From an uncultured Peptococcaceae bacterium (GTDB lineage: Bacteria; Bacillota; Dehalobacteriia; UBA4068; UBA4997), in the NCBI GenBank assembly GCA_937897635.1, contig CALCQI010000027.1, forward strand, positions 50,316 to 114,315: 64,000 nt of DNA. The letters run 5' to 3'. Of the stretch, positions 20,634 through 54,329 are shown in pieces. The stretch's first letter is position 1. The number at the start of each line of letters is the position of its first letter. The notes beneath the pieces were generated by a model, which did no database searches, was not told where the DNA came from, and was given only the letters and a program-made list of their open reading frames with translations. A program made the translations under genes and the position numbers.

Positions 20634-21449
20634 TTAAAAAATATTAGCGCCGCTGAATATTTCTATCATTTCGCGCCTTAACCTATCGGTTATTTCCAGC
20701 CTTTGCTTGGGCGACAATTCATAAACATCTTTATTGAAAAGATAATTTTGCAGCTCAATATCCTTAATAAGCATTTTGGTATGGAAAATATTGGATTGAT
20801 AAACATTTACATCAATAGCATCGTATCTGTGCAAAGTTTTATCATCTATATAATCCTGAATAGATGCAATGTTATGGTCTATATAAAACTTTTTACCTTC
20901 AACATCCCTGGTAAAACCGCGAACACGATAATCTATGGTAATAATATCCGAATCGAAACTATCTATAAGATAATCCAACGCATTAAGCGGAGAAATTTTA
21001 CCGCAGGTAGAAACATCAATATCTACACGAAAAGTGGAAATAGCATTATCAGGATGATATTCAGGAAAAGTATGCACGGTAACATGGCTTTTATCTAAAT
21101 GCGCATGAATGGTTTCATGGTTTTTCATTAGCCTTTCGCCTTGATTACATGATTCATCGATAAAAGATGAATCCAAAGGTCTTTCCGCGATAAGAATATT
21201 TACTGAAGCACCCTGGGGATCATAATCCTGTTTGGATATATTAAGCACATGAGCGCCTATCATTTCCGTTACATCACATAGGATTTTAGTTAATCTTTCA
21301 GAATTATACTGCTCATCGATATAAGCTATATAATCCTTTTGTTCTCTCTCACTTTTTGCATAGCAAACATCATAGATGTTGAAGCTAAGTGTTTTTGTGA
21401 GGTTGTTAAAGCCATACAATGTCAGCTTTTTTTCCAACCCTAACATCAC
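20634..21449 (-). CDS. speD: S-adenosylmethionine decarboxylase proenzyme (E. coli SpeD-type)
   Basis: 271 aa aligning nearly end-to-end with E. coli SpeD ([53 protein letters not shown]). Confidence 0.9.
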
Positions 21450-35931: not shown

Positions 35932-36079
35932 ATACCGCCACCCAAATCACTTTTGATATCTGCAGTTAGCAAAATACTTATAGCAAAAGCAAAAAATATT
36001 GTTACAATATATATACAAATTTTTTATTATATAGCAAATACAGCTTTAGTAAAGCAGTTATCAAATATACAAAAAACAT
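35929..36079 (-). pseudogene. Frameshifted paralog of the D-subunit gene between gerAC and gerAB
   Basis: ATG at 36079: MFFVYLITALLKLYLLYNKKFVYIL* then, in the -1 frame, YIVTIFFAFAISILLTADIKSDLGGGI*, whose TGA overlaps the gerAB ATG; aligns to the intact D protein (ELYILYKNKKKKETWIYSVTILFAFVISILLL). Confidence 0.55.
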
Positions 36080-36096
36080 TAAGATATATTTTATTT

Positions 36097-37299
36097 TTAT
36101 TCGACTATTTTAATTGGTTTTTGTGATGATGAGGATAACTTTAAATTTAGGTCTATCTTTGTAGTAAACTGCATATCCTTATAAACCTCATCCCAGTTTT
36201 TTTCTATTGTTTTCCAATAACCGGGCATTTTTCTTTTAATAGTGCCATTAAAATCAAATATATCCGTAGCCTGATTTTTTTGAGTCTTTTTTATTAAAGC
36301 TGCTATTTTTTTAACCAATATGCTTTCCATATCTTTTATTAAAATTTCTCTTTTATCTTTATCAATAAAATTGACACTGCTCTGCAATTCCGAAATACCA
36401 ACATCTATATCTGCTTCAATTTGCATTACAGGTTTATTATTTTTAATAATTGGTGTTAATTTTACCTTACTTGAGCATATCTCCAAAGCAATTTTAGTGT
36501 TTTCACCAAATTTATTTTCTTCAATATTAAAAACACCGCCTTTAAGCTCGTCTCTTATCAATAAAGCAATTTGTGATTCTTCCCCATCCAAAAAATATGC
36601 CAGTTTATCTTCTTTGAATACGGCAGAGCCCAATATTTCCGCAATTTTTTTATCTTCATAATTTTTTGTATAAACCACAGGTAAAGCAACTGAATTTGTT
36701 TTTACGTTTAATTTGGCCAGGAAATCCACAAATTCATCTGCTATTGATTTGGATATAGGCTTATTAGATTTTAAAATATCATTCAAATAATAAGAATTTA
36801 TAGCATTTAATTCATTAGATGTTTTAAATATTTCTTCAGCAGTTTCAGCCCTTGAAACTAACACCCACATATCCGGCCTGGTTTCAGTATCACGCCATAT
36901 TATATCCAAAACAGGTACAATACCTTCCCTAGCTATATCCTCACTTATTACCATAACCTTAGTATGTCCCCAAAATATACGTTTACCTGTTTGACTTATA
37001 GCATTTCGCATTGCATCAAATATAGTAAGGCCCTGCGACTTCACCAAGACTGCTGTTGTTGAAGCTTCTTTTTCAGAAGATTGCTGGTTTACTAACTCAA
37101 TAGTTAAAATATAATTATCTGTTTGAGTATCTTTATCTACGGCTACTCCTGTAGCAATAGCAATATTTTCAATATCCCTGTAATTCCAACAGGATGAAAT
37201 CATAGGTATACAAATAAGCAATAAAAATATCAACAAAATTTTAGGCTTTAGATTATTATTTTTTAGCAAAAGATTTGGCACCCGCCCTTCTAAGTGCAA
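36097..37299 (-). CDS. gerAC: Spore germination lipoprotein, GerAC family
   Basis: 400 aa; lipobox IPMISSC then Ger(x)C domain; true start probably a few codons inside (overlaps gerAA by 44 nt as called). Confidence 0.8.
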   Translation of the reverse strand: MHLEGRVPNLLLKNNNLKPKILLIFLLLICIPMISSCWNYRDIENIAIATGVAVDKDTQTDNYILTIELVNQQSSEKEASTTAVLVKSQGLTIFDAMRNAISQTGKRIFWGHTKVMVISEDIAREGIVPVLDIIWRDTETRPDMWVLVSRAETAEEIFKTSNELNAINSYYLNDILKSNKPISKSIADEFVDFLAKLNVKTNSVALPVVYTKNYEDKKIAEILGSAVFKEDKLAYFLDGEESQIALLIRDELKGGVFNIEENKFGENTKIALEICSSKVKLTPIIKNNKPVMQIEADIDVGISELQSSVNFIDKDKREILIKDMESILVKKIAALIKKTQKNQATDIFDFNGTIKRKMPGYWKTIEKNWDEVYKDMQFTTKIDLNLKLSSSSQKPIKIVE

Positions 37300-38779
37300 A
37301 TTTAGGCCTTTTGTTAATTAGCCATATGGGGGCTTTTACTGCGGTATCTTGAATATTTTGAATATCCATAAGGGAAGCATTCATCATATATGGTACACCG
37401 AAGGACCGCATTGAAATCAAATAGACAACTAAAACCATAACACTTAACATATATCCATAAAGCCCTAAAAAAGCTGCCATAATAAGATAAAAAGTTCTAA
37501 CAACAATTAAAGCACCTTTCATTTTAAAAATCAAAAATGCAGAAATTCCCGTAAATGCTGTTACAATAACCATAGGAGCACTGATGATTTTTGCCGCTAC
37601 GGCAGCTTCGCCTAAAACAAGTGCTCCCACAATACTTATAGCCATACCAACAGATAAAGGCAGCCTTACACCTGCTTCTCTCATAACTTCAAAAACCAAC
37701 AGCATGATTATCAATTCCACTATAGTTGGAAAAGGCACATCCTTCCTGGCTGCCGCAATGCTTAGCATTAAAGGTGTAGGCAACAATTCCTGATGAAATG
37801 TTACTATAGCAAGATATACTGCAGGGATACTTGTAGTTAAAAAAAAGGCCAGTATTCTTAGCAATCTGTTCATAGAGGCAAAAACATAATTATTATAATA
37901 ATCTTCATTTGCCTGAAAATACTCAAAAAACAAATATGGCAAGGTTAATACGCTGGGGGAACCATCACAAATCACAGCTACCCTTCCTTCAATAAGTTTA
38001 GCCGCAACAACATCAGGGCGTTCCGTATCTCCTATTGTACTAAACATACTTAAAGGTGAATCCTGGATGAGGTCTTGAATATATCGGGAATCCAAAATAC
38101 CCTCCTGATCTATTTTATTTAATCTTATCATTAATTCCTGTAAAATTTTTTTACTTGCTATACCCTCTATATAGCATACACAAATTTTGGTTTTGGTAAT
38201 GCTGCCCAGTTCCATATATTTGAATTTAAGATCAGGATTAACTATTTTTCTTTCTAATAAAGACATATTAACCTTGATAGATTCGGTAAACCCTTCCCTT
38301 GGCCCCCTTGTTATTCTTTCCGATTCCGGCTCGGTTATGGCCCTGGTAACCCATTCTTTGGTATTTATAACAAGGGCTTTAGAGAAGCCTTCCACAAGCA
38401 CAACAGTATCGCCATATAATATTGAATGCACAACCGTGCTTATATCCGCAACTTTTTTTACATCCCTGCAGGCTATAACTTTATTGCTAAGATAATTTAA
38501 CAGCTTGTTTTTTTTGATATTTTTACCCATAAGATTTTCCATAATAGGACGAATGATTTTATCGTTAACAATCTTTTCGGAAGACAAGGTATCCGCAAAA
38601 ACAATACAGTATTGGGGATGCCTGGAACCCTGTTCCTTCAAATACCTGTATACCACCATATCATCATTATTTAAAATCTGCTTGAGCAAAGCAATGTTTT
38701 CTGTTATAGAAGGCGAAAACGAATAACTTACTTGCCCCGCCACAGATGTCTTTTCAAAATCCACAGATTCTTTCTTCAT
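37256..38779 (-). CDS. gerAA: Spore germination protein, GerAA/GerKA family (A subunit)
   Basis: 507 aa; soluble N-domain then 5-6 TM C-domain characteristic of GerA A-subunits. Confidence 0.85.
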   Translation of the reverse strand: MKKESVDFEKTSVAGQVSYSFSPSITENIALLKQILNNDDMVVYRYLKEQGSRHPQYCIVFADTLSSEKIVNDKIIRPIMENLMGKNIKKNKLLNYLSNKVIACRDVKKVADISTVVHSILYGDTVVLVEGFSKALVINTKEWVTRAITEPESERITRGPREGFTESIKVNMSLLERKIVNPDLKFKYMELGSITKTKICVCYIEGIASKKILQELMIRLNKIDQEGILDSRYIQDLIQDSPLSMFSTIGDTERPDVVAAKLIEGRVAVICDGSPSVLTLPYLFFEYFQANEDYYNNYVFASMNRLLRILAFFLTTSIPAVYLAIVTFHQELLPTPLMLSIAAARKDVPFPTIVELIIMLLVFEVMREAGVRLPLSVGMAISIVGALVLGEAAVAAKIISAPMVIVTAFTGISAFLIFKMKGALIVVRTFYLIMAAFLGLYGYMLSVMVLVVYLISMRSFGVPYMMNASLMDIQNIQDTAVKAPIWLINKRPKFALRRAGAKSFAKK

Positions 38780-40741: not shown

Positions 40742-41803
40742 ATGAATAAACTGAATAAGATAATACCAGGTATACTGCTTTGTTTTGCAATAGCAAGCCC
40801 CGCATGGTTTTTAGGAAAGGCTTTACCACTAATAGGAAGCCCTGTTTTTGCCATTCTTCTGGGAATGTTTATCACAATGGTTTATCCAAAAGTTCTATCG
40901 GAAAAAATATCAATCACCACAAAAAACTCCGTTTCCGTATATCTTGATTTTGATAATGGAGTAAAATATACATCAAAAAATCTCTTGCAATATTCAATTG
41001 TTTTACTGGGTTTTGAAATGAATCTTTTTAATATAATTAAAGTTGGCGGTCAGTCTTTACTTATTATACTATTTACTCTTACTTCCGCATTTTTAACTGC
41101 TTTTTTTATAGGCAAAGCCTTAAAAATAAATGGGAAAACAGCTACATTGATAGGCGTAGGGACATCTATATGCGGCGGATCGGCAATTGCAGCCACTGCG
41201 CCTGTTATAGGTGCCAAAAGCGAAGATGTTGCTCAGGCAATATCAACCATTTTTCTGTTTAATATCATTGCTGTTTTTATTTTTCCTTCATTAGGACATA
41301 TGCTTAACATGAGTGATATTGGTTTTGGTATGTGGGCAGGAACAGCCATAAACGATACTTCATCTGTTGTTGCCAGCGGAACGGCTTGGAGTAATGCAGC
41401 AGGTAACAATACTGCCCTTACCTTTGCTACAATAGTTAAACTTACCCGCACCCTAATGATTGTACCTATAACCCTTGTACTTGCAATATATACAGCCAAA
41501 AAAACTAAAGCTGCCGCAAATAGCGGCAACTTTAGTTTCTATAAAGTTTTCCCTTGGTTTGTTATTGGCTTTGTTGCCGCAGCTGTGATCAATACTTTTG
41601 CAGGAATTCCGGCAACATCCTCTCATGGGCTTGCTACAATCGGCAAGTTTTTGATTGTTATGGCAATGGCAGGAATAGGGCTTAATACACACCTTAAAAA
41701 ACTTCTCACCAATGGCCTTAAACCAATATTTTTGGGACTTTGCTGCTGGTTTGCAGTAGCCAGTATATCACTTTTAGTGCAGATATTCACTAAGATATGG
41801 TAA
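40742..41803 (+). CDS. YeiH/UPF0324-family membrane protein (putative sulfate exporter family)
   Basis: ~353 aa from MNKLNKIIPG; 10-11 TM; classical yeiH-LysR(yeiE-like) divergent pair. Confidence 0.75.
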   Translation: MNKLNKIIPGILLCFAIASPAWFLGKALPLIGSPVFAILLGMFITMVYPKVLSEKISITTKNSVSVYLDFDNGVKYTSKNLLQYSIVLLGFEMNLFNIIKVGGQSLLIILFTLTSAFLTAFFIGKALKINGKTATLIGVGTSICGGSAIAATAPVIGAKSEDVAQAISTIFLFNIIAVFIFPSLGHMLNMSDIGFGMWAGTAINDTSSVVASGTAWSNAAGNNTALTFATIVKLTRTLMIVPITLVLAIYTAKKTKAAANSGNFSFYKVFPWFVIGFVAAAVINTFAGIPATSSHGLATIGKFLIVMAMAGIGLNTHLKKLLTNGLKPIFLGLCCWFAVASISLLVQIFTKIW

Positions 41804-41933
41804 AAGTTATGTTATAACAATGACTTAATATATAATTGACTTTATGTTAACTAAAGCTAAAAACTGAATATGACATCTATGCATCATCCAGCATAGCCTA
41901 ATAAAATGTTCTGAAACAATACTTTAGTAATAA

Positions 41934-42734
41934 TCATTTCAACCGGTCTAAAGCTTTTAAAATCCCATAGATGATTGCCTGTGGTCTAGGTGGGCAGCCC
42001 GGCACATAAACATCAACGGGCACAATATTATCGATACCGTTACCCGTAGCATAGGTATCCTTAAAAATCCCTCCGCTGCAAGCACAGGCACCTACAGCAA
42101 CCACGAGCTTTGGATCAGGAGCGGCATTATAGGTTTTTACTAACGCAAGCTGCATATTTCTTGTAGCGGTACCTGTAACAAGGAGCATATCGGCATGCCT
42201 TGGCGAAGCCACAAAGTTTATGCCCAGCCTTTCAATATCATTTACAGGATTATTCAAACCGTTTATTTCATAATCACAGCCATTACAGGAGCCTGCATCC
42301 ACTTCCCTAATTTGTAAGCTTCTGCCAAACAGCTTTTTAATATTTGTTTTTAATTCATTACAAATAACTTCATAGTCTTTGTTAGGAATATCTTTTTCTT
42401 CTATTAACGATGGCTTAATTCTAAGCTTGCTTTTATCCTTTTCAGCAAGCTCAAATTCATGTGTCATTTTTGCTGCCCCCAAGGAACATACTTCTTCACA
42501 TAAGGTACAGAATATGCACTCATCATAATTTATACCTATATTACTTAAGGTTTTATCCAGTACAATTGCCTGGGAAGGGCAGCGTGAAACACATTCCCCA
42601 CACCTATTGCATTTACTTAAATCTATTTCAGGCCTGCCAATAAACAGTCTTGAATCCAGCGGCTTATTAGGGTACTTACTGGTAAGCCTTGGATATTGGA
42701 TCATCTTTTTAACAATGTTTAACATATTCACCAT
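41934..42734 (-). CDS. Fused 2x[4Fe-4S] ferredoxin (HyfH/NuoI-like) + hydrogenase-type small subunit (HyfI/NuoB-like)
   Basis: 266 aa; CNRCGECVSRCP and CIFCTLCEEVC, then GSCNGCDYE...GACACSGG...GCPP (NuoB/EchC proximal-cluster cysteines). Confidence 0.8.
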   Translation of the reverse strand: MVNMLNIVKKMIQYPRLTSKYPNKPLDSRLFIGRPEIDLSKCNRCGECVSRCPSQAIVLDKTLSNIGINYDECIFCTLCEEVCSLGAAKMTHEFELAEKDKSKLRIKPSLIEEKDIPNKDYEVICNELKTNIKKLFGRSLQIREVDAGSCNGCDYEINGLNNPVNDIERLGINFVASPRHADMLLVTGTATRNMQLALVKTYNAAPDPKLVVAVGACACSGGIFKDTYATGNGIDNIVPVDVYVPGCPPRPQAIIYGILKALDRLK

Positions 42735-42767
42735 CCCAATTTATCCTAAAATCAAAACAACTCCACT

Positions 42768-44378
42768 TTATAAATCGTTTCCCGCATATGATAAATTAAA
42801 ACTCTTATTAATAAGTGGGAAATCAGGCACGATATTTCCTTTTACGGCATGACACAAGGCAGGCCAGTTGCAAAAGGAAGGAGTCCTTACTTTATATCTA
42901 AAAATCGTATTGTTTTCCCCCGTCATTATCCAATGGATATTTTCACCTCTCGGAGCTTCCGTTAAGCCAAAGGCAAAACGATAAGGCTCAACAGAACCTA
43001 CAGGCTCCAACACTTTCCCTCCGGGCATATTTTCAATAGCCCGTATCATAAGGCTGATCGATTCAAAACACTCTTCTATTTTTGTATTCATTCTACAATT
43101 TATATCGCCGTTATTATGTTTTGGTATGTTAAATTTCAGCTTATCATAAGCTTCATAAGGAAAGCTTTTTCTAACATCGAAGCATAATCCCGAAGCACGG
43201 CCGCCCGGACCAACTGCATTCAAATCTGTGGCGATTTTGGTTTTAAGTATGCCGGTGTTTTCAACCCTATCAATAAACATGGTATTGGCTTTGATAATTT
43301 TAAGCGTATCATAAAGCTCTTTTTTTATTTTTTCCAAACCTGCTATAACTTTTACTTCTTTACCTGCAACAAAATCCTGCCTTACTCCACCAATTTTATT
43401 AACACTTCTTAAAAAACGCATACCGCAAAGCTCATCGGCAACCGCATACGCCCAGCCTCTCATCATCCTAAACTGGAATGTGCCAAAACCATAGGCAGAA
43501 TCAAGGCATAACCCGCCTAAATCTCCAAGATGGCTGGTAAGCCTTTCAAGCTCTGCAAAAACTACCCTAGTATATTGGGCTCTAGAAGGTATTTTTACCT
43601 TGGCTATCTTTTCAATGGCCTCACAATAGGCAAGTGAATTGGCAAAGGTTTCATCCCCTGATATACGTTCCGAAACATACAAGCACTTTTCAATGCTCTG
43701 CCCTTCGCACATTTTTTCTATACCCTTATGAACATAATAAAGCTGTGCTTCCAAATTTATAACAGGTTCACCCGCAACACTGAACCGAAAATGACCGGGT
43801 TCTATGATACCTGCGTGTACAGGACCTACAGGAATTTCATAAACTCCCTCACCTGTTACCTTTTGGAAAGGGGTTACCTCTTTGGCAAAATCGGGCTTGT
43901 GCTTTACATCAAATTCCTTGCGTAAAGGAAATTCCGCCTTAGGCCAGTTACTGTGGAAAACAAGCCTTTTGGGGTTAGGATGCCCCTTTGGAAAAATCCC
44001 AAATAAATCATTGATTTCTCTTTCATATAAATCAGCAGCAGGTATATTAGGGGTAATTGAAAAAATTTCCATTTGATTTGGATCAATCAAGGTTTTAATA
44101 ATTAGAAGCAAGGCTTGCTTCCTGTCCGCAAATACATAATATACAGCATATTTGCTGCAAATACTCTTTTCATCATTAGCAAACATTGAAACAAGAGGGT
44201 AACCCTGCGTGGTATTGATATAAGTGCAAATCTCCAATATTTTAGCAGGGTTTACCTTCATATATAGTTCATTCGTATTTTCGGTACTGCTACTATAGAT
44301 ATTTTCAGCAAAAGCTTCTGTAAGTTTATTTTTCAACTCGGTTAAAATCACCATTTTGCTCTCCATTCTATGCTCCAA
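42768..44378 (-). CDS. HyfG/HycE-like 'large subunit' (NuoC-NuoD fusion) LACKING the [NiFe]-binding cysteines
   Basis: 536 aa; NuoD-like core PVGPVHAGIIEPGHFRFSV...; where [NiFe] hydrogenases have RxCGxCxxxH the sequence is ERISGDETFAN, and the C-terminus ends KSFNLSYAGNDL instead of DPCxSCxxR. Confidence 0.8.
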   Translation of the reverse strand: MEHRMESKMVILTELKNKLTEAFAENIYSSSTENTNELYMKVNPAKILEICTYINTTQGYPLVSMFANDEKSICSKYAVYYVFADRKQALLLIIKTLIDPNQMEIFSITPNIPAADLYEREINDLFGIFPKGHPNPKRLVFHSNWPKAEFPLRKEFDVKHKPDFAKEVTPFQKVTGEGVYEIPVGPVHAGIIEPGHFRFSVAGEPVINLEAQLYYVHKGIEKMCEGQSIEKCLYVSERISGDETFANSLAYCEAIEKIAKVKIPSRAQYTRVVFAELERLTSHLGDLGGLCLDSAYGFGTFQFRMMRGWAYAVADELCGMRFLRSVNKIGGVRQDFVAGKEVKVIAGLEKIKKELYDTLKIIKANTMFIDRVENTGILKTKIATDLNAVGPGGRASGLCFDVRKSFPYEAYDKLKFNIPKHNNGDINCRMNTKIEECFESISLMIRAIENMPGGKVLEPVGSVEPYRFAFGLTEAPRGENIHWIMTGENNTIFRYKVRTPSFCNWPALCHAVKGNIVPDFPLINKSFNLSYAGNDL

Positions 44379-45840
44379 TGATAATATTTTGCGCTTGAGT
44401 GATAAGGTTTTTTAGCTCATCCGGAATAAACAAGCCACTTATGCTTATTACCAAGAACAGCACTACAATTACAATGGTTCCGGCCTTATTAGTTTCACCC
44501 GGCTGCAATTCCTCTTCTTGATTATTGCCATAGAACATTTTAAATAAAGTAACCGCAATACCCGCAAATATAATTGCCAAAAGCAGAGCTAAAGCCCCCC
44601 CCACCACAAACTTTTTAGCGGTGAATAAAGATACCATTATGCTAAGTTCACTGGCAAAAACACTGAAAGGCGGTGTACCTGCTATAGCAAATAAACCAAG
44701 TAAAAACACTGTTCCTGAAATCGGCAGCAGTTTAAGTATAGCTTTGATTTCGGAAATCTGTTTTGTATTATATTTTTGCAATATATTACCTGAAGCTAAG
44801 AATAACATAGCCTTAGTAAGTGAATGGTTAATCATATGAAGCAAAGCTCCAAAAACAGACAGGGGTGTAAAAACACCCATAGCAACAGCAATAATACCCA
44901 TATGTTCTATGCTTGAATAAGCCAATAACCTTTTATAGTCCTTTTGCGTAAGTATGAAGATAGCCGCGGTAAGTATAGATAAAATCCCCAAAGCTATCAA
45001 CAGCCTGCCTGTATAAATACTGCTGCCAAGATTGCGGTTTACAACAGCTACCGTACGAATTATCCCATACATTGCGCTATTCAGCAAAACCCCCGAAAGC
45101 AATGCACTGATTGGCGAAGGTGCTTGGCTATGAGCATCAGGCAGCCATGTATGCATGGGAGCGAGACCCGCCTTAGTACCAAAACCTATTAAAATAAAGA
45201 TAAATGCCAGCTTAACTATAGGGCTTTTTAAAGATTCCGCATTATTATACAATGCTATCCAATCTAAAAATTGGTTATTCTCCAATACCCCTATGGATGA
45301 AAGATGCAAAAATATAATACCCAGCAAGGCAATCGCGATACCTACCGAACAAATGAGCACATATTTCCAAGCTGCCTCAAGCGAATATTTATCATTGTAA
45401 AAGCCAACCAAAAATGCTGAGGCTAAAGTGGTTGCTTCAATGGCTATCCACATAATACCCATATTTTTTACAGTTAAAGCAAGTATCATTGTAAACATGA
45501 AAGCATACATCAAAATATAATAAAGCCTTAACCTTCCTCTATCTATTTTTCCATGCTTTATTTCCGTTTCCATATATGAAACAGAATAGATACTTGCCAT
45601 AAAACCAATAAGAATAACTATATCAAGAACTATAATGCTTAAGGCATCAATATAAAATATACCCCCCAAAGCAGTATGATGTGCACTGCCTAAAACCATA
45701 ACATCTGTAGTAAGATAAACCGCAATTATGATCAAAAGGCTTGAAGTCAATAAGCTTATAGTATGTTGGATTATACTGTTTTTAAAAAGCATGAACAGTA
45801 AAACAGCAATAACGGGTAAGGCAATCAAGAAAAATCCCAT
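44368..45840 (-). CDS. HyfF/NuoN/MrpD-like antiporter-type membrane subunit
   Basis: 490 aa, 14 TM, NADH-quinone oxidoreductase chain L/M/N proton-pumping domain motifs (WLPDAHSQAPSPISALL). Confidence 0.8.
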   Translation of the reverse strand: MGFFLIALPVIAVLLFMLFKNSIIQHTISLLTSSLLIIIAVYLTTDVMVLGSAHHTALGGIFYIDALSIIVLDIVILIGFMASIYSVSYMETEIKHGKIDRGRLRLYYILMYAFMFTMILALTVKNMGIMWIAIEATTLASAFLVGFYNDKYSLEAAWKYVLICSVGIAIALLGIIFLHLSSIGVLENNQFLDWIALYNNAESLKSPIVKLAFIFILIGFGTKAGLAPMHTWLPDAHSQAPSPISALLSGVLLNSAMYGIIRTVAVVNRNLGSSIYTGRLLIALGILSILTAAIFILTQKDYKRLLAYSSIEHMGIIAVAMGVFTPLSVFGALLHMINHSLTKAMLFLASGNILQKYNTKQISEIKAILKLLPISGTVFLLGLFAIAGTPPFSVFASELSIMVSLFTAKKFVVGGALALLLAIIFAGIAVTLFKMFYGNNQEEELQPGETNKAGTIVIVVLFLVISISGLFIPDELKNLITQAQNIIIGA

Positions 45841-45849
45841 CGTTTTATC

Positions 45850-46524
45850 TTATCCTTTCAGGTTGCTTAGTTTATCAATATTAATAGATTCAAACTTCTC
45901 GTTTATTTTAAACACCATAATACCCAATACCATAACGGCTGTGATCATATCAACAAAAATACCTATATCTACAATAAAAGGCATACCTTGGGTAGAAAAC
46001 ATTGCTGTAACAAAAAGCCCGTTTTCAATAACCAAAAAGCCTATTATCTGGCCAATAGCCTTTCTTCTGCTTATCATAAAAAACAGCCCTATCAAAATAA
46101 CCGAAACCGAATTAACAACCTGAACATTGATCATACCATCATTGATACCTTCAATAGTTGCAAGAGAAAAATAAGTAAAAACAACCAAAGTACAGCATAC
46201 CAGAATAAGAATGGGAATATTTAGAATAAAATCTTTTTCAACCTTATATTCCGCTTTAGCATAAGCTTTACTTAAAATATTAGGTATCCAAATAACTTTT
46301 AGGATTATAATGAGCAAACAAACCACCAAAACATCAAAACGCCCCTCTTCAGTTATAGTTTTTATGCCCATAATACCCGCGGCAAGAGCTATCAAAAACG
46401 ATTGGAACCTAAAGGTTTTAATATAGGATTTGCTCATTTTATTTGCCATCAAAATAAATGACGATAGTAAGATCAAAATTGATAATGAATCAAAAAAACT
46501 AGACATAGCGGCCTCCCAAAACAA
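45850..46524 (-). CDS. HyfE-like small membrane subunit
   Basis: 224 aa, 7 TM, position and size match E. coli HyfE. Confidence 0.65.
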   Translation of the reverse strand: MFWEAAMSSFFDSLSILILLSSFILMANKMSKSYIKTFRFQSFLIALAAGIMGIKTITEEGRFDVLVVCLLIIILKVIWIPNILSKAYAKAEYKVEKDFILNIPILILVCCTLVVFTYFSLATIEGINDGMINVQVVNSVSVILIGLFFMISRRKAIGQIIGFLVIENGLFVTAMFSTQGMPFIVDIGIFVDMITAVMVLGIMVFKINEKFESINIDKLSNLKG

Positions 46525-47455
46525 AGTACTGTAAAAATCCTAAAAAAGATAATATAAATGACAATGCTGCCAAATTGGGTATACTGAACAGCTTGAACTT
46601 TACTGTATTAATCTCTGCTATAGCAATGATTATGGCAATACCTATCACTTTGACCAAATAAATAATGACTGAAAGAATAACCGCGCCAATACCTGTTATA
46701 GCTATAAGCTGATCATGCGGCAGTAAAAGGTTTACCAATAAGGTTATAAAGACAAGCTGTTTTATAGCCGCACCATATTCCATTAGAGCAAGGTGTCTTC
46801 CCGAATACTCTAAAATCATTGCTTCATGCACCATAGTCAATTCAAGATGCGTATTTGGATCATCCACAGGTATCCTGGAGGTTTCAGCAATAATTATAGT
46901 CATCAAAGCCATAAAGATCATTATATAAACAGGATGCAGCAAAGGTACACCTATATTTTGCATTGTATTCATCATCTCAAGCAAGGACGTAGATTGGGAA
47001 ATAAGACCTACCGTAAACAATGAAACCAAAATAGAAGGCTCAATCAATGAGGAAATCATGCCCTCTCTGCTGCTACCCATCCCACCAAAAGTACTTGCAG
47101 TATCCAAAGCGGCTATCATCGTAAAAAACCTGCCCAACGCCAGTATAGAAACAAGCATGATGATATCTCCGGGAATTTGCTCAGGCACAATCATGGTAGA
47201 TACAGGCACAAGCAACGCCGCTGCAACAGCGGTTGTAAAAACAATATATGGCGTTACCTTAAACACCCAAGAAGATACATCTGAAACCACAGAGCTTTTT
47301 TTGAAGAGTTTGTATAAATTAAAATACATCTGAAAAATAGGCGCACCCTTCCTTTTCTGCGAAAAAGCCTTGGTTTTATTAGTGATGCCGTTTAGTAAAG
47401 GCGCTGTCAGCAGAATGACCAATAACTGTATTACTATATAAAGTAAATTTTTCAT
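46499..47455 (-). CDS. HyfC/HycD/NuoH-like membrane subunit
   Basis: 318 aa, 8 TM, respiratory-chain NADH dehydrogenase subunit 1 family. Confidence 0.8.
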   Translation of the reverse strand: MKNLLYIVIQLLVILLTAPLLNGITNKTKAFSQKRKGAPIFQMYFNLYKLFKKSSVVSDVSSWVFKVTPYIVFTTAVAAALLVPVSTMIVPEQIPGDIIMLVSILALGRFFTMIAALDTASTFGGMGSSREGMISSLIEPSILVSLFTVGLISQSTSLLEMMNTMQNIGVPLLHPVYIMIFMALMTIIIAETSRIPVDDPNTHLELTMVHEAMILEYSGRHLALMEYGAAIKQLVFITLLVNLLLPHDQLIAITGIGAVILSVIIYLVKVIGIAIIIAIAEINTVKFKLFSIPNLAALSFILSFLGFLQYFVLGGRYV

Positions 47456-47476
47456 ATCTGTTTCTCCTCAAACTTT

Positions 47477-49561
47477 TTAGGCAAATATATTGTAAACCAT
47501 CAATACTAAAACAGTAACAAAAATATAGATCAAGTAATTATGGATACTGCCTGTTTGCACCCTGAACGTAGTTCTTCTGGAAAAGCTTTTAATCATTTTA
47601 CACACAGGATGATATATATACTTTTCAAAAACAGGTTCATCTGCTGTAACATACTTTATTGATTCAGGATGATATGGTAAATCTCCCGTAATCAAGGTTT
47701 TTCTGGAAGGTCTGAACAGTATCCTGAAAACGATTTTAAGGGGTTTAGAAAAACCAATAGAGCTATATTGCATTCTTGAATTAAGCGCTTCAAAACCACA
47801 ATCCCATGTACCATATTTTCTTTCTATGTATTTGCCGCCATTGATTCTAATGATTAAAAGGGTAAACAAAATTAACCCTGCCATAACAATAAAAAATACA
47901 ACAGGGGATATACTGCTGCCTGATATATTCAAAGAATAATAAGCTATGCCAAGGCCGCCATGCATATATTCCAAAACAGAGCTCCCCACAACACCAAAAA
48001 CAACTTTGTCAATCAACTTCAAAATAAGTAAAGGGAAAAGCCCTGCGGCCAGGCATAATGCTGCCATTATCCCCATTCCTATATTCATTGTAACAGGAAC
48101 CTCTTTGGCATCTAAAGAACACTCACTGCGTGGCAAACCCAAAAAAGAAATGCCGAAGAATTTAACAAAACAAGCTGCAGCCATTGCCCCTGCTAAGCCA
48201 AGGGCAGCCACTGCCAAAATAGATAATATATTGAGCCCTGCTTGCCCTAACACAATATTTGCAAAAAGAGATTGGTAAGTAAGCCATTCGCTGACAAAGC
48301 CATTGAAAGGAATAATTGAAGATATAGCAAGTGAAAAACATAATATTAAAAAAGCTGTGATAGGCATAGTTTTGATCAAGCCGCCAAGCTTTTCAATATC
48401 CTTTGTATGCGTAGCATATTGAATGGATCCTGCGCCAAGAAAAAGCCCACCTTTGAATAAGGCATGGTTAACGGTATGAAAAAGAGCGGCTACAAGTGCC
48501 AATGCCCCTAAAAACTGATTGTTTTGGGCAAAAGCTATAAAACATACACCTAAGCCAATCAAAATGATACCAATGTTTTCAATACTGGAATAAGCCAAAA
48601 GCCGCTTGATATTATGCTCCATTAAAGCATAAGCCACCCCAAGAACAGCAGAAACAATACCAATGCCTAAAATAAGTGTACCCCACCAAGTGCTCTGAAC
48701 ACCTAAATAGCAAAGCACAAAACGCAGCAATCCATAAATAGCTGTTTTTATCATAATACCGGACATCAAGGCAGATACATTGCTGGGCGCAGCGGGATGT
48801 GCGTAAGGTAGCCAAATATGAAGCGGTATAGCTCCCGCCTTTGTTGCAAAACCAATCAAAAACATAATGAAGATGATATTCTTTGCAAATTCCGGTATAG
48901 CAGCAGAGCTGCCAAATATATCAAATGATCCGGTATAGCAGTAAATCATCATAAAACCTATAAGTAAAAAAGCCGCACCTATATGTGTCATAATAATATA
49001 AATCATACCGGCCCGCTGATTTTCTTCATGTTCCAATTCAAAAATAACTAAAAAGTAGGAAAGCACAGACATTGCTTCCCACGAAATATAGAAGAAAACA
49101 GCATTAGCAGATGTTAATACCAAAATCATAGATAAAATAAAAGCGGAATACAGAAAATTAAAAAGTCCTACATTTCTTTTCCCATAATAATGGGAAATAT
49201 AACCTATAGAATATACGGAAACACACAATGCCAAAACGGCTAAAACAATTAAAAAAATTGCGGAAAGGTTGTCTATTTTCATATCTATTGTGATAAAGGG
49301 TATCGGTGATTGAAATAGGCTTAAGCTTAAAGCAATGTTTTGAAAAAGGATTTGCCCAATTGAAGCTCCCGCTAAAAGAACGGATGCCACAATATATATT
49401 GAATTAGAAACAATATTACACATTTTAGGCCACTTCATTAAAGAAAGGGCTGCCGCCGCACCAAGCAAATAAAGTAACAGCGCAGCCTTAAATAAATTGC
49501 CCGCTAGAAACGCCTCCATTAAAAAAAATACCTCCTGAAAATTTAGTTTATACCACACCAA
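47477..49561 (-). CDS. HyfB/NuoL/MrpA-like antiporter-type membrane subunit
   Basis: 694 aa, ~16 TM, WLPYAHPAAPSNVSALMSG motif, HyfB-like C-terminal extension; start may be internal (MEAFLAGNL...). Confidence 0.8.
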   Translation of the reverse strand: MVWYKLNFQEVFFLMEAFLAGNLFKAALLLYLLGAAAALSLMKWPKMCNIVSNSIYIVASVLLAGASIGQILFQNIALSLSLFQSPIPFITIDMKIDNLSAIFLIVLAVLALCVSVYSIGYISHYYGKRNVGLFNFLYSAFILSMILVLTSANAVFFYISWEAMSVLSYFLVIFELEHEENQRAGMIYIIMTHIGAAFLLIGFMMIYCYTGSFDIFGSSAAIPEFAKNIIFIMFLIGFATKAGAIPLHIWLPYAHPAAPSNVSALMSGIMIKTAIYGLLRFVLCYLGVQSTWWGTLILGIGIVSAVLGVAYALMEHNIKRLLAYSSIENIGIILIGLGVCFIAFAQNNQFLGALALVAALFHTVNHALFKGGLFLGAGSIQYATHTKDIEKLGGLIKTMPITAFLILCFSLAISSIIPFNGFVSEWLTYQSLFANIVLGQAGLNILSILAVAALGLAGAMAAACFVKFFGISFLGLPRSECSLDAKEVPVTMNIGMGIMAALCLAAGLFPLLILKLIDKVVFGVVGSSVLEYMHGGLGIAYYSLNISGSSISPVVFFIVMAGLILFTLLIIRINGGKYIERKYGTWDCGFEALNSRMQYSSIGFSKPLKIVFRILFRPSRKTLITGDLPYHPESIKYVTADEPVFEKYIYHPVCKMIKSFSRRTTFRVQTGSIHNYLIYIFVTVLVLMVYNIFA

Positions 49562-50094
49562 AAATTTTGCCAGATTTGTTCATAATGCATATTCACATTC
49601 TCTGATTGATAAATAATGATACTGGATAAAGTACCATGAATCATTGCAAAATACGAAATAGCAACATCATCCACATCCTGCTTACGAATAATTTCCGCCT
49701 CCATATTTGAAATAATTATTTCTTTAACTATTCTAAAACACTGCTTAGATAGAGTATCGATTTTTGCAATGAGCGTTTCTTCAAATGCTTTGGGCGGAAA
49801 AAGTAAAAGCCTTTTCCAAAAGTAAAGCTTGGTTTTGGATTTATCATAATAATTCAAGATCATAAAAAAAATAGTTTTCAAGTCTTTAGAGCCTTCATTT
49901 ATTTCAAAAAAATACTCATTAATCTCTTGATCAATGACTGCATATAACAAATCTTCTTTACTTGTAAAATGAGCATATATAGAGGCCTTTTGAATACCAA
50001 CTTCACTTGCCACTTCATTTAAGGAAAATTCATTGCCTTTATCAGCAAATAATCTAAACGCTGAATCCATCAGCTTTTTTTTAGTTTCCATCAA
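49543..50094 (-). CDS. TetR-family transcriptional regulator, first gene of and overlapping the hyf-like operon
   Basis: 183 aa; HTH LMDSAFRLFADKGNEFSLNEVASEVGIQKASIYAHFTSKEDLL; stop overlaps next gene by 19 nt. Confidence 0.8.
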   Translation of the reverse strand: MMETKKKLMDSAFRLFADKGNEFSLNEVASEVGIQKASIYAHFTSKEDLLYAVIDQEINEYFFEINEGSKDLKTIFFMILNYYDKSKTKLYFWKRLLLFPPKAFEETLIAKIDTLSKQCFRIVKEIIISNMEAEIIRKQDVDDVAISYFAMIHGTLSSIIIYQSENVNMHYEQIWQNFWCGIN

Positions 50095-50335
50095 AATCCT
50101 CCTTCATTAAAACCTTCCTACCTAACGTAAGGTAGCCTTAAACATTATATAGTTGAAAACCTTGTTTGTCAATGATTAACATATCTGTATAGCAATTTAA
50201 AAGTGCAACAACAAACTGCTGCACTTTATTTTAATATTAGTTTTTATTAACCCTTTATTAATTTCAAACTGTAAATTTTAACTTAATTTATTTTATGACC
50301 TGCTATATTTTTACTATAAAATATCTAAAATTATA

Positions 50336-50860
50336 TTAGCAATCAATTCCGGTACGTGAAAGCACCCCCTGATTAAAATAGTGTTTGACTTCCTTGATTT
50401 CACTTACCAAATCCGCTGCTTCTATAAGTTTTTTAGAAGCATAGCGGCCTGTTAGGATTACTTCTACATGTTCAAGTTTTTCCTGTAAAGCCGAAATGAT
50501 TTCCTGATCGGTTAATAACTTATAAAATACAGCAATCGTAACTTCATCCATGATCACCACATCATATTCACCGCTGCAAAGCGCATGACGGCATCGTTCC
50601 AACCCTGTTTGGGCACGGTTTATATCCTCCTTATCAGGTTTTCTGTCTATAAAACATTCAGTACCATATTGCTCTATAGTAACCCCCTTAATAAAGGCAG
50701 TGCATTTCGTTTCCTGATAAGCCATACCTTTAACAAACTGGCCTATATAAACTTTTTTTCCTGCCATAGCCGCCCGTAATGCCAAGCCAAATGCCGCTGT
50801 GGTCTTGCCTTTACCGTTTCCTGTATAAACATGGATATATCCTTTTGCCAATCTGCTCAT
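50336..50860 (-). CDS. cobO: Cob(I)yrinic acid a,c-diamide adenosyltransferase (CobO/BtuR-type)
   Basis: 174 aa; P-loop GNGKGKTTAAFGLALRA, DEVTIA motif. Confidence 0.85.
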   Translation of the reverse strand: MSRLAKGYIHVYTGNGKGKTTAAFGLALRAAMAGKKVYIGQFVKGMAYQETKCTAFIKGVTIEQYGTECFIDRKPDKEDINRAQTGLERCRHALCSGEYDVVIMDEVTIAVFYKLLTDQEIISALQEKLEHVEVILTGRYASKKLIEAADLVSEIKEVKHYFNQGVLSRTGIDC

Positions 50861-51291: not shown

Positions 51292-51591
51292 ATGATAAAA
51301 CTGGATAATGTATCCGTAGGAAGTTATGTTACGGTTGAAAATCTTTTATCCTCTGGCACATTAAGGGAAAGAATGCTGGCCCTTGGTTTAACTAAAGGTA
51401 CCAGAGTAGAGGTTGTAAGAAAAGGTCCATCAGGCGACCCTACAGTTTACAATATACGTGGTGCGATGATAGCTTTCAGAAAAGAGGAAGCCTCCTTAAT
51501 TTCAGTTGCTTATAATAAAAAACAAAGCGAAAAGTGTAATGATAGCTATAAGGAATTGGCAAGTATCCTTAATTTAGGTTGCTCATCATAA
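51292..51591 (+). CDS. feoA: FeoA-domain ferrous iron transport protein with C-terminal tail
   Basis: 99 aa; SH3-like FeoA core (VTVENLLSSGTLRERMLALGLTKGTRVEVVRKGPSGDPTVYNIRGAMIAFRKEEA). Confidence 0.8.
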   Translation: MIKLDNVSVGSYVTVENLLSSGTLRERMLALGLTKGTRVEVVRKGPSGDPTVYNIRGAMIAFRKEEASLISVAYNKKQSEKCNDSYKELASILNLGCSS

Positions 51592-51644
51592 AGCATTGTT
51601 AAGCAATACTTATTTTTATATAGCTAAAATTAAGGGGGTTTAAT

Positions 51645-53756
51645 ATGGGTTTAACATTTCAATCCACTCAAAATGCTGCCTTAACAGATCTTTTTAAAAT
51701 TGAAAAGAAAGAAGGACAGCATGTTATTGCCCTTGCAGGCAACCCTAACACAGGTAAAAGCACTGTTTTCAATTCCCTAACAGGACTTCATCAGCATACA
51801 GGCAACTGGCCCGGTAAAACAGTAGTAAACGCAAAAGGAGAATTTACTCATAACGGGCAAAAAAATATCCTTGTAGACCTTCCCGGAACCTATTCACTAT
51901 TCGCCTCCTCTGTTGAGGAAGAAGCAGCAAGAGATTTTATATGTTTAGGGAATCACGATGCAGTAATAGTAGTTACTGATGCTACCTGTTTGGAAAGAAA
52001 CTTGAACCTTGTTTATCAGGTTATGGAACTTACTGATAATGTAGTATTGTGTATAAACCTTATAGATGAAGCAAAAAAGAAAAATATAATAATAGATGGC
52101 CAAGGTATAGAAAAAGAACTGGGTATCCCGGTAGTTTTATGCGCAGCCAGAAGCGGTATAGGTATAAAGGAACTTAAGGAAGCCGTTTACAAAGTTACTG
52201 CAGGCCGGCTTAAACCAAACCCCGAAATCTTAAAATATCAAAATTACATAGAGAAACAGGTTGATTCTATTCAACCCATTATAGAAAAACATATACAGGG
52301 AATAAATTCCAGATGGCTTGCCTTAAGATTCTTAGGTGGAGATGCCAAACTAATAAAAGAGATCTTTAACAATATAGATAAAAAAACCCTTAATGAAATA
52401 CAGAAAATCATAAATTTATCTACTGTACATGATGATAACATAAATATTAGGGATGATATTACAGAGCGGATCTATAAAAGAGCAGAAGAATTAAGAAATA
52501 AGTATGTTAAAACAGATAAAGCCAAAATCAACAGGGATAGAATAATCGATAACTATATAACCTCAAAAATTTTTGGCATTCCTCTAATGCTTTTGACCTT
52601 AGCTTTAGTATTTTGGATCACCATTACAGGGGCAAATATTCCTTCAGCAATGTTAGCAGATTTTCTCTTTGGCATCGAAGACAAAATAACCTTGTGGTTT
52701 AACAGCATGAATGCACCGGCATGGCTGCATGGAGTTCTTGTACTTGGGCTTTACAGAACTCTTGCTTGGGTTGTTTCTGTTATGCTGCCGCCTATGGCCA
52801 TATTCTTCCCCCTATTTACAATACTTGAGGACTTAGGCTACTTGCCCAGAGTAGCTTTTAACCTTGATCACCTTTTCAAAAAAGCTTGTGCCCATGGCAA
52901 GCAATGCTTAACCATGTGTATGGGCTTTGGTTGTAATGCTGCGGGAGTAATAGCCTGTAGAATAATTGATTCTCCCAGAGAAAGGCTTATTGCAATCTTA
53001 ACCAATAACTTTGTACCCTGTAATGGCAGGTTCCCTACTTTAATAGCTATATCTACAGTTTTTCTTATTTCTAAAGGCGGTTTAGGCTCAGGTATTCTAC
53101 CAGTTCTCTCAGTAACGGGTTTAGTTATCATTGGCATAACTGTAACCTTATTAGTATCATATATACTATCTAAAACCATCTTAAAAGGAATTCCCTCTAC
53201 CTTTACCCTAGAGCTTCCTCCTTACAGAGTACCTAAAATAGGCAGAGTCCTATATACATCCATAATCGATAGGACCATATTTGTGCTGCGCAGAGCTGCA
53301 ATTGTTGCCGCTCCAGCCGGTGCCATAACTTGGATACTTGCAAACATATATATTGGTGATTTAAGCATTATAGGTCATATGGCTGCTTTTTTTGATCCAT
53401 TTGCCCAAATCATCGGACTTGACGGCTTTATATTGATGGCTTTCGTTCTGGGGCTGCCCGCTAATGAAATTGTTCTGCCAATACTGCTGATGTCTTATTT
53501 ATCAACAGGCTCTATGATAGAATTTGAAAGCATAGCTTCTTTAAGAACTATATTATTGGAGCATAACTGGACATATCTTACAGCATTAAATACTATGCTG
53601 TTCAGCTTACTGCATTGGCCTTGTGCTACAACCCTTTTAACTATCAAGAAGGAAACCGGAAGTTTGAAATGGACTGGGCTTGCGGCACTCATCCCAACAG
53701 TAATAGCAATTGCTGTATGCTTACTAACAACTATTGTTTGGAGGTTATTTGTATAA
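51645..53756 (+). CDS. feoB: Ferrous iron transport protein B
   Basis: 703 aa; G-protein domain GNPNTGKSTVFNSLTG, DLPG, then polytopic gate/permease domain. Confidence 0.9.
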   Translation: MGLTFQSTQNAALTDLFKIEKKEGQHVIALAGNPNTGKSTVFNSLTGLHQHTGNWPGKTVVNAKGEFTHNGQKNILVDLPGTYSLFASSVEEEAARDFICLGNHDAVIVVTDATCLERNLNLVYQVMELTDNVVLCINLIDEAKKKNIIIDGQGIEKELGIPVVLCAARSGIGIKELKEAVYKVTAGRLKPNPEILKYQNYIEKQVDSIQPIIEKHIQGINSRWLALRFLGGDAKLIKEIFNNIDKKTLNEIQKIINLSTVHDDNINIRDDITERIYKRAEELRNKYVKTDKAKINRDRIIDNYITSKIFGIPLMLLTLALVFWITITGANIPSAMLADFLFGIEDKITLWFNSMNAPAWLHGVLVLGLYRTLAWVVSVMLPPMAIFFPLFTILEDLGYLPRVAFNLDHLFKKACAHGKQCLTMCMGFGCNAAGVIACRIIDSPRERLIAILTNNFVPCNGRFPTLIAISTVFLISKGGLGSGILPVLSVTGLVIIGITVTLLVSYILSKTILKGIPSTFTLELPPYRVPKIGRVLYTSIIDRTIFVLRRAAIVAAPAGAITWILANIYIGDLSIIGHMAAFFDPFAQIIGLDGFILMAFVLGLPANEIVLPILLMSYLSTGSMIEFESIASLRTILLEHNWTYLTALNTMLFSLLHWPCATTLLTIKKETGSLKWTGLAALIPTVIAIAVCLLTTIVWRLFV

Positions 53757-53843
53757 TTAATAAATCAAACAGGCGGCAGATAAGCAAAAGGCAAAGCTTT
53801 TTAATGGTATTTGCTAAACAATGCTTTAATATGTCCATGATTT

Positions 53844-54329
53844 TTATTTATTATTTCTTGTTTTTCTATATTTATTAAATTTTTCCAGTGAATCAGGATG
53901 ATCATTAAAAAAGGCCATCACATCTTTTATACCGCTTAGTATTTCTTCATTTATTGTATGTTCAATTTTTTCTGTTTCCTGTAATAATCCCTCGGTAACA
54001 TTTAAAAATTCTAGAAACTTTTCTATTATATTATGGCGTTCAAGCAGTGATTTTCCTATTTCCATCCCACTTAATTCAAGCATTATCACACCATATTTTT
54101 CATATTTTATAAGTTTTAAGTCTGCCAGTTTTTGTATCATTTTAGTAACGGATGGTGGTTGCACATTCAATGCCGAAGCAAGGTCATTAACCCTTGTAAA
54201 CCCCTTATCAGCAGAAAGCCTGTATATCATTTCCATATAATCTTCAGCCGAGGGTGATAACAGTTCTCGATCTTTTCTCATATATTCTCTAAATGTAAAA
54301 AATTCACGTTCACACATCACATTTCCCAC
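53844..54329 (-). CDS. DtxR/MntR-family metal-dependent regulator (convergent with feoB)
   Basis: 161 aa; LSPSAEDYMEMIYRL...VNDLASALNVQPPSVTKMIQKLADLKLI wHTH. Confidence 0.75.
   Translation of the reverse strand: MGNVMCEREFFTFREYMRKDRELLSPSAEDYMEMIYRLSADKGFTRVNDLASALNVQPPSVTKMIQKLADLKLIKYEKYGVIMLELSGMEIGKSLLERHNIIEKFLEFLNVTEGLLQETEKIEHTINEEILSGIKDVMAFFNDHPDSLEKFNKYRKTRNNK

Follow-up and report, generated by a model that had tools for sequence, protein, structure and literature searches.

A TetR-linked, cysteine-less Hyf-like operon from a Clostridial genome and its probable membership of the Ehr family

What can a complex built like hydrogenase 4 do when its large subunit has lost every cysteine that would hold the nickel-iron (Ni-Fe) centre? 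We addressed this question for an operon in a 64-kb stretch of DNA from an uncultured Peptococcaceae bacterium (contig CALCQI010000027.1), referred to here as the window. Seven tightly packed open reading frames (ORFs) run in the same direction on the minus strand between positions 41934 and 50094 of the window and, with the promoter included, the unit reaches 50172. Coordinates are those of the whole 64-kb stretch, and all features of the unit lie on its minus strand. ORF identities were assigned with Pfam and NCBIfam, and matches to the PDB were obtained with phmmer. By these assignments the genes encode, in order of transcription, a TetR-family regulator, HyfB-, HyfC-, HyfE-, HyfF- and HyfG-like subunits, and a fused HyfH-HyfI protein. 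The six structural genes, ehrA-B-C-D-L-S, correspond by family match to HyfB-C-E-F-G-(H+I). The whole is best explained, with a probability that we put at roughly 0.55, as a ferredoxin-linked, ion-translocating oxidoreductase of the energy-converting hydrogenase-related (Ehr) type, encoded in a unit that its own TetR protein would repress.

The large subunit and its place in the Ehr family

The answer depends above all on the large subunit, EhrL (42768..44366). The sequence-only reading had put its length at 536 aa; database gene calls begin at M5, which gives 532 aa from ATG 44366. The protein matches Complex1_30kDa and Complex1_49kDa, with a NuoC-like and a NuoD/HycE-like part fused in one chain, and its top PDB match is E. 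coli HycE (7z0s_E, E = 2.3e-93, residues 19-533 aligned). In the residue-level HMMER alignment, the counterpart of HycE RVCGICGFAHS is RISGDETFANS in EhrL, and that of DPCYSC is NLSYAG. None of the four Ni-Fe cysteines remains: Ser, Glu, Ser and Gly stand in their places, with an Asp between the first two positions, and EhrL has neither of the group 4a ligand motifs, RxCGxCxxxH (L1) and DPCxxCxxR (L2). The loss of L1 and L2 that had been read from the letters was thereby confirmed by alignment with HycE/NuoD-type proteins. The former L1 motif (43635..43673) now reads SERISGDETFANS, with Cys to Ser, Ile to Asp, Cys to Glu and His to Asn relative to HycE. The former L2 motif (42771..42803) forms the very C-terminus, SFNLSYAGNDL followed by the stop codon, with Cys to Ser and Cys to Gly. 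This end (...GNDL) corresponds to the mature C-terminus of HycE and leaves no protease-cleaved tail, that is 0 residues compared with 20-34 aa in true Hyc/Hyf representatives. When EhrL is aligned with E. coli NuoCD, Gly and Ile stand opposite the two NuoD residues that bind quinone, the Tyr of RIEY and the His of PSAH respectively. Since the EhrL motifs have neither the cysteines nor the quinone Tyr/His, the subunit holds no Ni-Fe site, and no quinone site of the canonical kind either. An AlphaFold2 model of EhrL (predicted template modelling score, pTM, 0.79) found its best fold match in the PDB in 7z0s_E (HycE), with a TM score of 0.84, and NuoCD came next.

A corrected sequence with the CxxC motifs restored had been named as the outcome that would overturn this picture. 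What we found was the opposite. Almost all of the 120 closest database homologues (68-100% identity) carry SERISGDE[TS]F..NS at the former L1 position, and INKSFNLSYAGNDL stands at the C-terminus in 120 of 127 close homologues. The sources of these sequences include Desulfosporosinus, Acetobacterium, Desulfitibacter, Dehalobacterium and many metagenome-assembled genomes (MAGs) of Clostridia. Because the closest homologues carry the same motifs, the loss of the cysteines is not a sequencing error. A locus survey limited to one genome per species gave 76 loci with 53-83% identity, all from Bacillota/Clostridia, and the next matches, at 31-35%, were true Hyf complexes of Campylobacterota. The six-gene order was identical in all 76 Bacillota loci, as far as the contigs extend, and the reading frames were intact in about 75 of them.

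We searched 1.84 billion cluster representatives exhaustively with the large subunit using HMMER. Ehr proved widespread, with 8873 related large-subunit clusters at 50% identity, 998 of them at E <= 1e-30. From the best 150, 121 full-length sequences were scored, a set that included a few members of the window's clade and two Campylobacterota Hyf sequences from the locus survey. Most of these closest sequences (91 of 121) were without the cysteines, 6 of them in the window's clade and 85 more distant. A further 22 keep four (or three) Cys but have no tail, with the terminus 'SFELCYxCxDR', and the last 8 are genuine Hyc/Hyf proteins, which have both 'DPCxSC' and a tail. Among the 85 distant cysteine-less sequences, the first Cys has become Ser in 60, the residue between the first two positions is Asp in 67, and the third and fourth Cys have become Ser and Gly in 76 cases each. 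Most of them have S-G-D, and they share the end ...SFNLSY[AS]GxDL; the signature S-G-D ... N-L-S-Y-x-G-x-D-L is common to the window and its more distant cysteine-less representatives. In place of the second cysteine the window has Glu, a position that is Ser or Thr in most relatives. The shared signature is most simply read as the outcome of an ancient loss of the cysteines, after which selection favoured a different site.

In a neighbour-joining tree of 122 sequences, calculated without bootstrap support or HydDB references and with P0146 and P0134 placed inconsistently, the cysteine-less sequences adjoin the tail-less four-Cys clade and group outside Hyc/Hyf. The window clade forms a single branch within the cysteine-less radiation. 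The four-Cys clade is probably group 4f-like ('Ehf'; for example Desulfotomaculum ruminis Desru_3260-3265, 'Ehr with four Cys') and has a six-gene layout similar to that of the window and a tail-less end. It is the nearest clade to the window in this tree and shares the terminus SF(E/N)L-x-Y-x-x-x-D(R/L), but it retains CGxC and CYxC, which the window does not. Alignment, family-wide substitutions, the phylogeny and the literature all agree with the earlier assignment of the locus to the Ehr modules, and we consider it very probable that the locus is an Ehr member and not a hydrogenase.

Ehr complexes are defined by a group 4 [NiFe]/NuoD-related large subunit without the Ni-Fe cysteines, and their function is described as unknown (PMC3569383, PMC4378227, PMC10284858); the Ehr literature also includes PMC6349859, PMC7894505 and PMC4758237. 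They have been described since 2005; PMC3569383, PMC7894505, PMC6349859 and PMC4378227 cite Coppi 2005 and Marreiros et al. 2013 for them. The Ehr complex of Geobacter sulfurreducens (EhrA-D/L/S, GSU0739-0745), compared here by its published description (PMC7894505), likewise has a NiFe/NuoD-homologous large subunit without Ni-Fe cysteines. Ehr operons are self-contained and comprise NuoL-like, NuoH-like, HyfE-like, NuoM/N-like, large and small subunits. The Geobacter EhrA/C/L/S subunits are more abundant on formate (PMC7894505). The Firmicute Sulfobacillus has a syntenic set of six Hyf/Nuo-like genes in which the large subunit is without the motifs (PMC4378227), and a pairing of formate dehydrogenase with Ehr in Margulisbacteria has been suggested speculatively (PMC6349859). 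The same observation is thus already published for other Firmicutes and many phyla, and the locus is not new in kind. What is worth recording for this clade is the fused ferredoxin domain and the TetR/operator pair. Our literature search found no paper on this Clostridia clade, its TetR or its operator. Evolutionary schemes put Ehr between the group 4 hydrogenases and complex I, and the present locus does not settle its function.

A side observation concerns a Methylocystis 'group 4f' complex, for which an ...AARVS motif and a 16- to 20-fold induction at pH 5 have been reported (bioRxiv 10.1101/2025.08.29.672306). Several of the cysteine-less representatives compared (P0232, P0238, P0251) read AAR[VIL]SGD at the former L1 position. 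Judged by its motif, the Methylocystis complex, a distant relative, may be a cysteine-less Ehr instead of a hydrogenase.

The resemblance of the gene order to hyf is genuine, since the best PDB matches are all subunits of E. coli formate hydrogenlyase (FHL; 7Z0S). E. coli Hyf and Hyc have in common with the window the order B-C-E-F-G-H-I, a fused NuoC-NuoD large subunit and an EPGHFR loop. The window differs from them in its identity of about 32%, in the absence of the Ni-Fe cysteines and of a C-terminal tail, in the fusion of HyfH with HyfI, and in being without HyfA/HycB, HyfD, HyfJ, FdhF, Hyp and HycI. It had been described as E. coli Hyf minus HyfD with H and I fused; the order and the fusion stand, but HyfA, HyfJ and HyfR are missing too. 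A family scan of the ORFs of at least 150 aa in the 64-kb window found no Hyp or HycI families, in keeping with the earlier remark that no hyp/hyc maturation or protease genes lie nearby. Genes for a HyfA/HycB polyferredoxin, FdhF, Hyp or HycI were absent from the whole window and recurred in none of about 60 related loci. Public annotations nevertheless name these proteins 'Ni,Fe-hydrogenase III large subunit', 'hydrogenase 4 subunit B' and 'NADH-quinone oxidoreductase subunit C', and metabolic reconstructions based on such names will wrongly infer H2 evolution or NADH oxidation.

Iron-sulphur wire, membrane arm and the TetR gene

The small subunit EhrS (41934..42734) is a fusion of a ferredoxin and a proximal-cluster protein (Fer4 dicluster and Oxidored_q6; HycF E = 4.4e-16, HycG E = 1.1e-41). 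Residues ~5-110 make up a 2x[4Fe-4S] ferredoxin domain of the HycF/HyfH-like kind, and residues ~127-264 a NuoB/HycG/HyfI-like domain. Twelve cysteines (C42, C45, C48, C52, C73, C76, C79, C83, C150, C153, C217 and C247) are 100% conserved in 70 orthologues. They include all four proximal-cluster cysteines, as had been stated from the sequence. The ferredoxin motifs had both been given as CxxCxxCxxxCP, which is true of the first; the second ends in CS (CxxCxxCxxxCS). By these motifs, the complex retains a three-cluster iron-sulphur (Fe-S) wire, consisting of two predicted [4Fe-4S] clusters in the ferredoxin-like domain and the proximal cluster. A relative with 47% identity carries the same fusion of ferredoxin and small subunit, and the N-terminal 2x[4Fe-4S] domain on the small subunit distinguishes the window from more distant Ehr complexes. 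The fused entry domain, by its ferredoxin-type sequence, points toward a ferredoxin partner.

The membrane arm comprises four subunits. EhrA (47477..49519, 680 aa from ATG 49519) is HyfB-like and of the antiporter type (NF005086, PF00361 Proton_antipo_M). Its score of 667 bits against NF005086, 'hydrogenase 4 subunit B', equals exactly the cut-off of that NCBIfam model, and it matches HycC (7z0s_C) in the PDB with E = 2.8e-70. EhrD (44368..45840, 490 aa) is a second, HyfF-like antiporter-type subunit (HyfF models <=469 bits; PF00361). EhrB (46499..47455, 318 aa) is a HyfC, NuoH-like membrane subunit (PF00146 NADHdh, E = 1.4e-35). EhrC (45850..46524), HyfE-like, matches NF008556 'hydrogenase 4 membrane subunit' at E = 7e-24 and PF00420 weakly, and is 224 aa long if it starts at TTG 46524 and 218 aa long if it starts at ATG 46506. 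In EhrA, residues E162, K241, K272, K370 and E425 (numbered from the TTG 49561 ORF) are invariant in 56 orthologues, as are E135, K223, H230, K343 and E398 of EhrD among its orthologues. The invariant acidic residues of EhrB in the orthologue alignment include E131, E139, D198, D199, E205, E211, E216 and E226. The canonical lysine of transmembrane helix 7 is present in EhrA (GFATKAGAIPLHIWLP), whereas E. coli HycC (7z0s_C) has a leucine there (GFGLLAGIIPLHGWVP). The ion-translocation apparatus is intact as judged from these residues, with two antiporter-like subunits bearing the canonical Glu/Lys sets and an acidic-rich NuoH-like subunit.

Complex I and the Pyrococcus MBH/MBS (MBH being the membrane-bound hydrogenase) share with the window the Fe-S wire, the NuoD-like pocket, NuoH-like and antiporter-like subunits, and the Lys/Glu chains. 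Compared with complex I, the window is without the quinone Tyr/His, NuoA/J/K and the NADH module, and it has two PF00361 subunits instead of three. The EhrL matches to MbsL (E = 1e-26) and MbhL (2.6e-41) are far weaker than that to HycE.

Selection on the operon was estimated by the Nei-Gojobori method against three relatives. The ratio of nonsynonymous to synonymous substitutions (dN/dS) was 0.05-0.13 for all six structural genes, with dS saturating, and was lowest for EhrL, at 0.05-0.076. In the large subunit, conservation reaches at least 97% at 163 of 536 positions in a set of 69 orthologues that come from several families. Strong purifying selection acts on all six ehr genes.

The first gene of the unit encodes a TetR-family regulator of 182 aa (49543..50091; PF00440 TetR_N, E = 7.2e-13), which begins at ATG 50091 behind the ribosome-binding site GAAGGAGG. 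Orthologues with 62-79% identity stand directly upstream of the complex in 13 loci, namely in Desulfosporosinus, Acetobacterium and its relatives, some Peptococcaceae and Desulfitobacteriia. The gene is missing from about 41 other loci, those of the window's two closest relatives included, and is present in about a quarter of the clade's loci. A dedicated TetR with a putative operator sets this subclade apart from other Ehr. The nearest solved structures in a PDB search are the uncharacterised Listeria proteins Lmo2088 and Lmo0852; the search returned no relative with a known ligand.

The sequence-only reading had the TetR gene overlapping the first structural gene and translationally coupled to it. 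Such an overlap arises only with the longest ORF of EhrA, which begins at TTG 49561, and is an artefact of that choice. The junction reads ...AAC TAA attttcAGGAGGtattttttttaATG, with the TetR stop codon at 49543-49545, a consensus Shine-Dalgarno sequence (AGGAGG) standing before ATG 49519, and a gap of 23 nt. The 12 other TetR-bearing loci have gaps of 9-45 nt, each with a Shine-Dalgarno sequence inside. ATG 49519 is accordingly the likely start of ehrA on sequence grounds, and tetR and the ehr genes are probably co-transcribed without overlap.

Upstream of the TetR gene lies a predicted sigma-A/sigma-70-type promoter (50144..50172), TTGACA-17 nt-TATAAT, which is the sole 12/12 match to this pattern in positions 41500-50500. 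The 12 other TetR-bearing loci have TTGACA...TAT(A/G)AT at the equivalent relative position. Just after the -10 box, between it and the TetR ribosome-binding site, stands an 18-bp palindrome, CTACCTTACGTTAGGTAG (50118..50135), a putative TetR operator that matches once in the 64-kb window where 0.05 matches are expected. In all 13 TetR-bearing loci the pattern CTACCTwwCGwwAGGTAG stands ahead of the TetR start at a distance of 16-29 nt, exact in 9 of them and with one mismatch in 4, and among all the loci surveyed it is restricted to that site. The shared promoter, the conserved palindrome and the repressor as first gene therefore suggest an autoregulated tetR-ehr transcription unit, which is the straightforward reading of the arrangement. 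The earlier suggestion of ligand-responsive control is strengthened by the conserved promoter and palindrome. Upstream of the 41 loci that have no TetR we found neither a Rex box nor a shared 10-mer.

Two sets of genes border this region. In the window, an ATP:corrinoid adenosyltransferase gene (CobA/CobO; 50336-50860, minus strand) lies upstream of the TetR promoter and is followed by a hairpin, AAAGTGCAGCA...TGTTGCACTTTT (~50205-50235, minus strand), which resembles its terminator. In five Acetobacterium-type loci (L003, L011, L021, L028 and L029), a beta-class carbonic anhydrase gene (Pro_CA) lies directly upstream of TetR and a BacA (undecaprenyl-diphosphatase) gene directly downstream of ehrS, both on the same strand as the operon; in L003 they occupy about 3436-4005 and 12700-13530. 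The arrangement is lineage-specific.

Proposed function and its rivals

We propose that reduced ferredoxin or another low-potential donor would feed electrons into the ferredoxin domain fused to the small subunit. In MBH, Ech and FHL electrons enter at the dicluster subunit, and it is by analogy with these three that we infer ferredoxin donation. From the ferredoxin domain the electrons would reach the proximal cluster and finally an acceptor, which would be neither a proton nor a quinone of the canonical kind and would sit in the remodelled polar pocket Ser-Gly-Asp-Glu ... Asn-Leu-Ser-Tyr-Ala-Gly. Turnover would drive the translocation of H+ or Na+ via the two antiporter-like subunits, as in MBH, FHL and complex I. 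Expression of the whole unit would begin at a single sigma-A promoter in front of the TetR gene. With TetR bound to the 18-bp palindrome immediately behind the -10 box, the unit would stay repressed until a ligand frees the protein. A redox-driven ion pump with an acceptor other than H2, taken as a claim of its own, falls a little short of an even chance in our estimate.

A bolder form of this proposal, which we regard as doubtful, would make the Clostridial Ehr a new coupling site, a ferredoxin-oxidising H+/Na+ pump with a non-proton, non-quinone acceptor or a non-cysteinyl cofactor housed in the conserved Ser-Gly-Asp-Glu / Asn-Leu-Ser-Tyr pocket. If true, this site would work beside Rnf in acetogens (Acetobacterium) and in Desulfosporosinus and Desulfitobacteriia, and the TetR effector would be that substrate or a direct metabolic proxy of it. 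The clade is found in the cultured Desulfosporosinus acidiphilus SJ4, Acetobacterium bakii and A. fimetarium. With a TetR and a sharply defined putative operator in the subclade, the TetR ligand could reveal the physiological signal or substrate, and the question of Ehr function becomes modestly more testable through those cultured species of Desulfosporosinus and Acetobacterium that carry the TetR-bearing version.

Several observations weigh against the proposed ferredoxin-linked pump. Donor, acceptor and activity are assigned by inference, and the binding of TetR to the palindrome is deduced from position and conservation. The EhrL model has predicted local distance difference test (pLDDT) values below 50 at the pocket (residues 165-206, 237-239 and 497-532), and since it is unreliable exactly there, we read the pocket chemistry from sequence alone. 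A more distant Ehr with 40% identity has a small subunit of 172 aa with the NuoB domain and no ferredoxin domain; ferredoxin input is therefore not general for the Ehr family. When the ORFs within 5 kb of the operon were clustered across about 60 loci, no conserved oxidoreductase or electron-input neighbour was found. The only recurrent gene at the operon border was TetR, and the other clusters were generic (ABC transporters, histidine kinases) or lineage-specific. Finally, ehrL is split in one Bacillota MAG (L075, 10010-14441) by an insert of about 2.9 kb with two IS3-type transposase gene sets (rve, HTH_Tnp_1), an interruption that inactivates the complex and shows it to be dispensable in that MAG.

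The absence of both acceptor-site ligand sets (Ni-Fe Cys and quinone Tyr/His) and of partner oxidoreductase genes would also be expected if the complex were a redox-gated or redox-independent Mrp-like cation/proton antiporter serving pH or Na+ homeostasis without a terminal acceptor, its peripheral Fe-S arm being only a structural cap or a ferredoxin redox sensor. The full Glu/Lys sets and the good match to MrpA/MrpD-type structures fit such an antiporter, and TetR regulators often control transport systems. The strong acid induction of the distant Methylocystis complex (bioRxiv 10.1101/2025.08.29.672306) points the same way. We nevertheless regard an antiporter as unlikely. Across 70 orthologues every one of the 12 Fe-S cysteines is conserved and a 2x[4Fe-4S] domain dedicated to electron entry is retained, the peripheral large subunit is the most constrained gene (dN/dS 0.05-0.076), and the former active-site residues are nearly invariant, beyond the needs of a cap. 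A pocket that binds menaquinone, in a minimal ferredoxin:menaquinone oxidoreductase like complex I, Fpo or NDH-1, appears less likely still. NuoCD/NuoD are the next-best matches in sequence and fold after HycE, EhrL has a NuoD-like RTPSF motif, the NuoH-like subunit keeps conserved acidic residues, and Desulfosporosinus and Desulfitobacteriia are respiring bacteria with menaquinone. Yet the Tyr and His positions of NuoD are Gly and Ile, equivalents of NuoA, NuoJ and NuoK are missing, and the clade is well represented in Acetobacterium, whose model species is not known to have quinones or cytochromes; a quinone acceptor is disfavoured on this last account.

Two further explanations were rejected. 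A conventional H2-evolving Hyf or formate hydrogenlyase, with its cysteines lost to sequence error or exchanged for alternative ligands, would account for the gene order, the best matches to Hyf/Hyc and the public label 'Ni,Fe-hydrogenase III large subunit'. We give it almost no credence, as the same cysteine-less motifs occur in 120 independent homologues and in hundreds that are more distant, there is no maturation tail, and HyfA/HycB, FdhF, Hyp and HycI are absent from the window and the related loci examined. A conventional hydrogenase or a sequence error is effectively refuted by the conserved cysteine-less motifs. It would be equally surprising if the operon were a decaying, non-functional relic of a hydrogenase operon, for which the vanished catalytic ligands and the ehrL gene broken by insertion sequence (IS) elements in L075 might be cited. 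The selection data refute pseudogenisation: dN/dS stays at 0.05-0.13 for each of the six genes, with dS saturating. At least 97% conservation is seen at 163 of the 536 positions of the large subunit, and frames are intact in about 75 loci.

Neighbouring genes in the window

Downstream of the Ehr operon, at a distance of about 3 kb, is a spore germinant receptor operon of the GerA type (GerA, GerAC, spore permease; 34801-38779, minus strand). In five other Bacillota loci (L019, L022, L024, L040 and L066), GerAC and spore-permease genes likewise follow Ehr at 2.3-2.9 kb downstream, on the opposite strand; the proximity may be residual synteny or chance. About 9 kb from Ehr are two adjacent P-loop ATPases of the MinD/ParA/NUBPL type, each with a 4Fe-4S ferredoxin insert (31625-33332, minus strand), for which a role in Fe-S delivery is possible from their sequence. 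Beyond the TetR gene, the ferrous iron transport genes FeoA and FeoB (51292-54329) adjoin a repressor gene of the DtxR/IdeR type on the opposite strand.

Further away, a polyamine biosynthesis cluster (15098-21449, minus strand) encodes an S-adenosylmethionine (AdoMet) decarboxylase, an Orn/Lys/Arg decarboxylase, a spermidine synthase, an agmatinase-type arginase, a saccharopine-dehydrogenase-like enzyme of the carboxynorspermidine dehydrogenase type and a decarboxylase dependent on pyridoxal phosphate (PLP). No tRNAs were found in the window. Its sole Rfam matches are two T-box leaders (781-1015 and 5346-5550, minus strand), far from Ehr, the second directly upstream of a threonyl-tRNA synthetase gene (3390-5303). 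A surface protein of 1685 aa (24106-29163, minus strand) combines three SLH domains, a YDG domain and chitobiase C-terminal/Fn3-associated domains.

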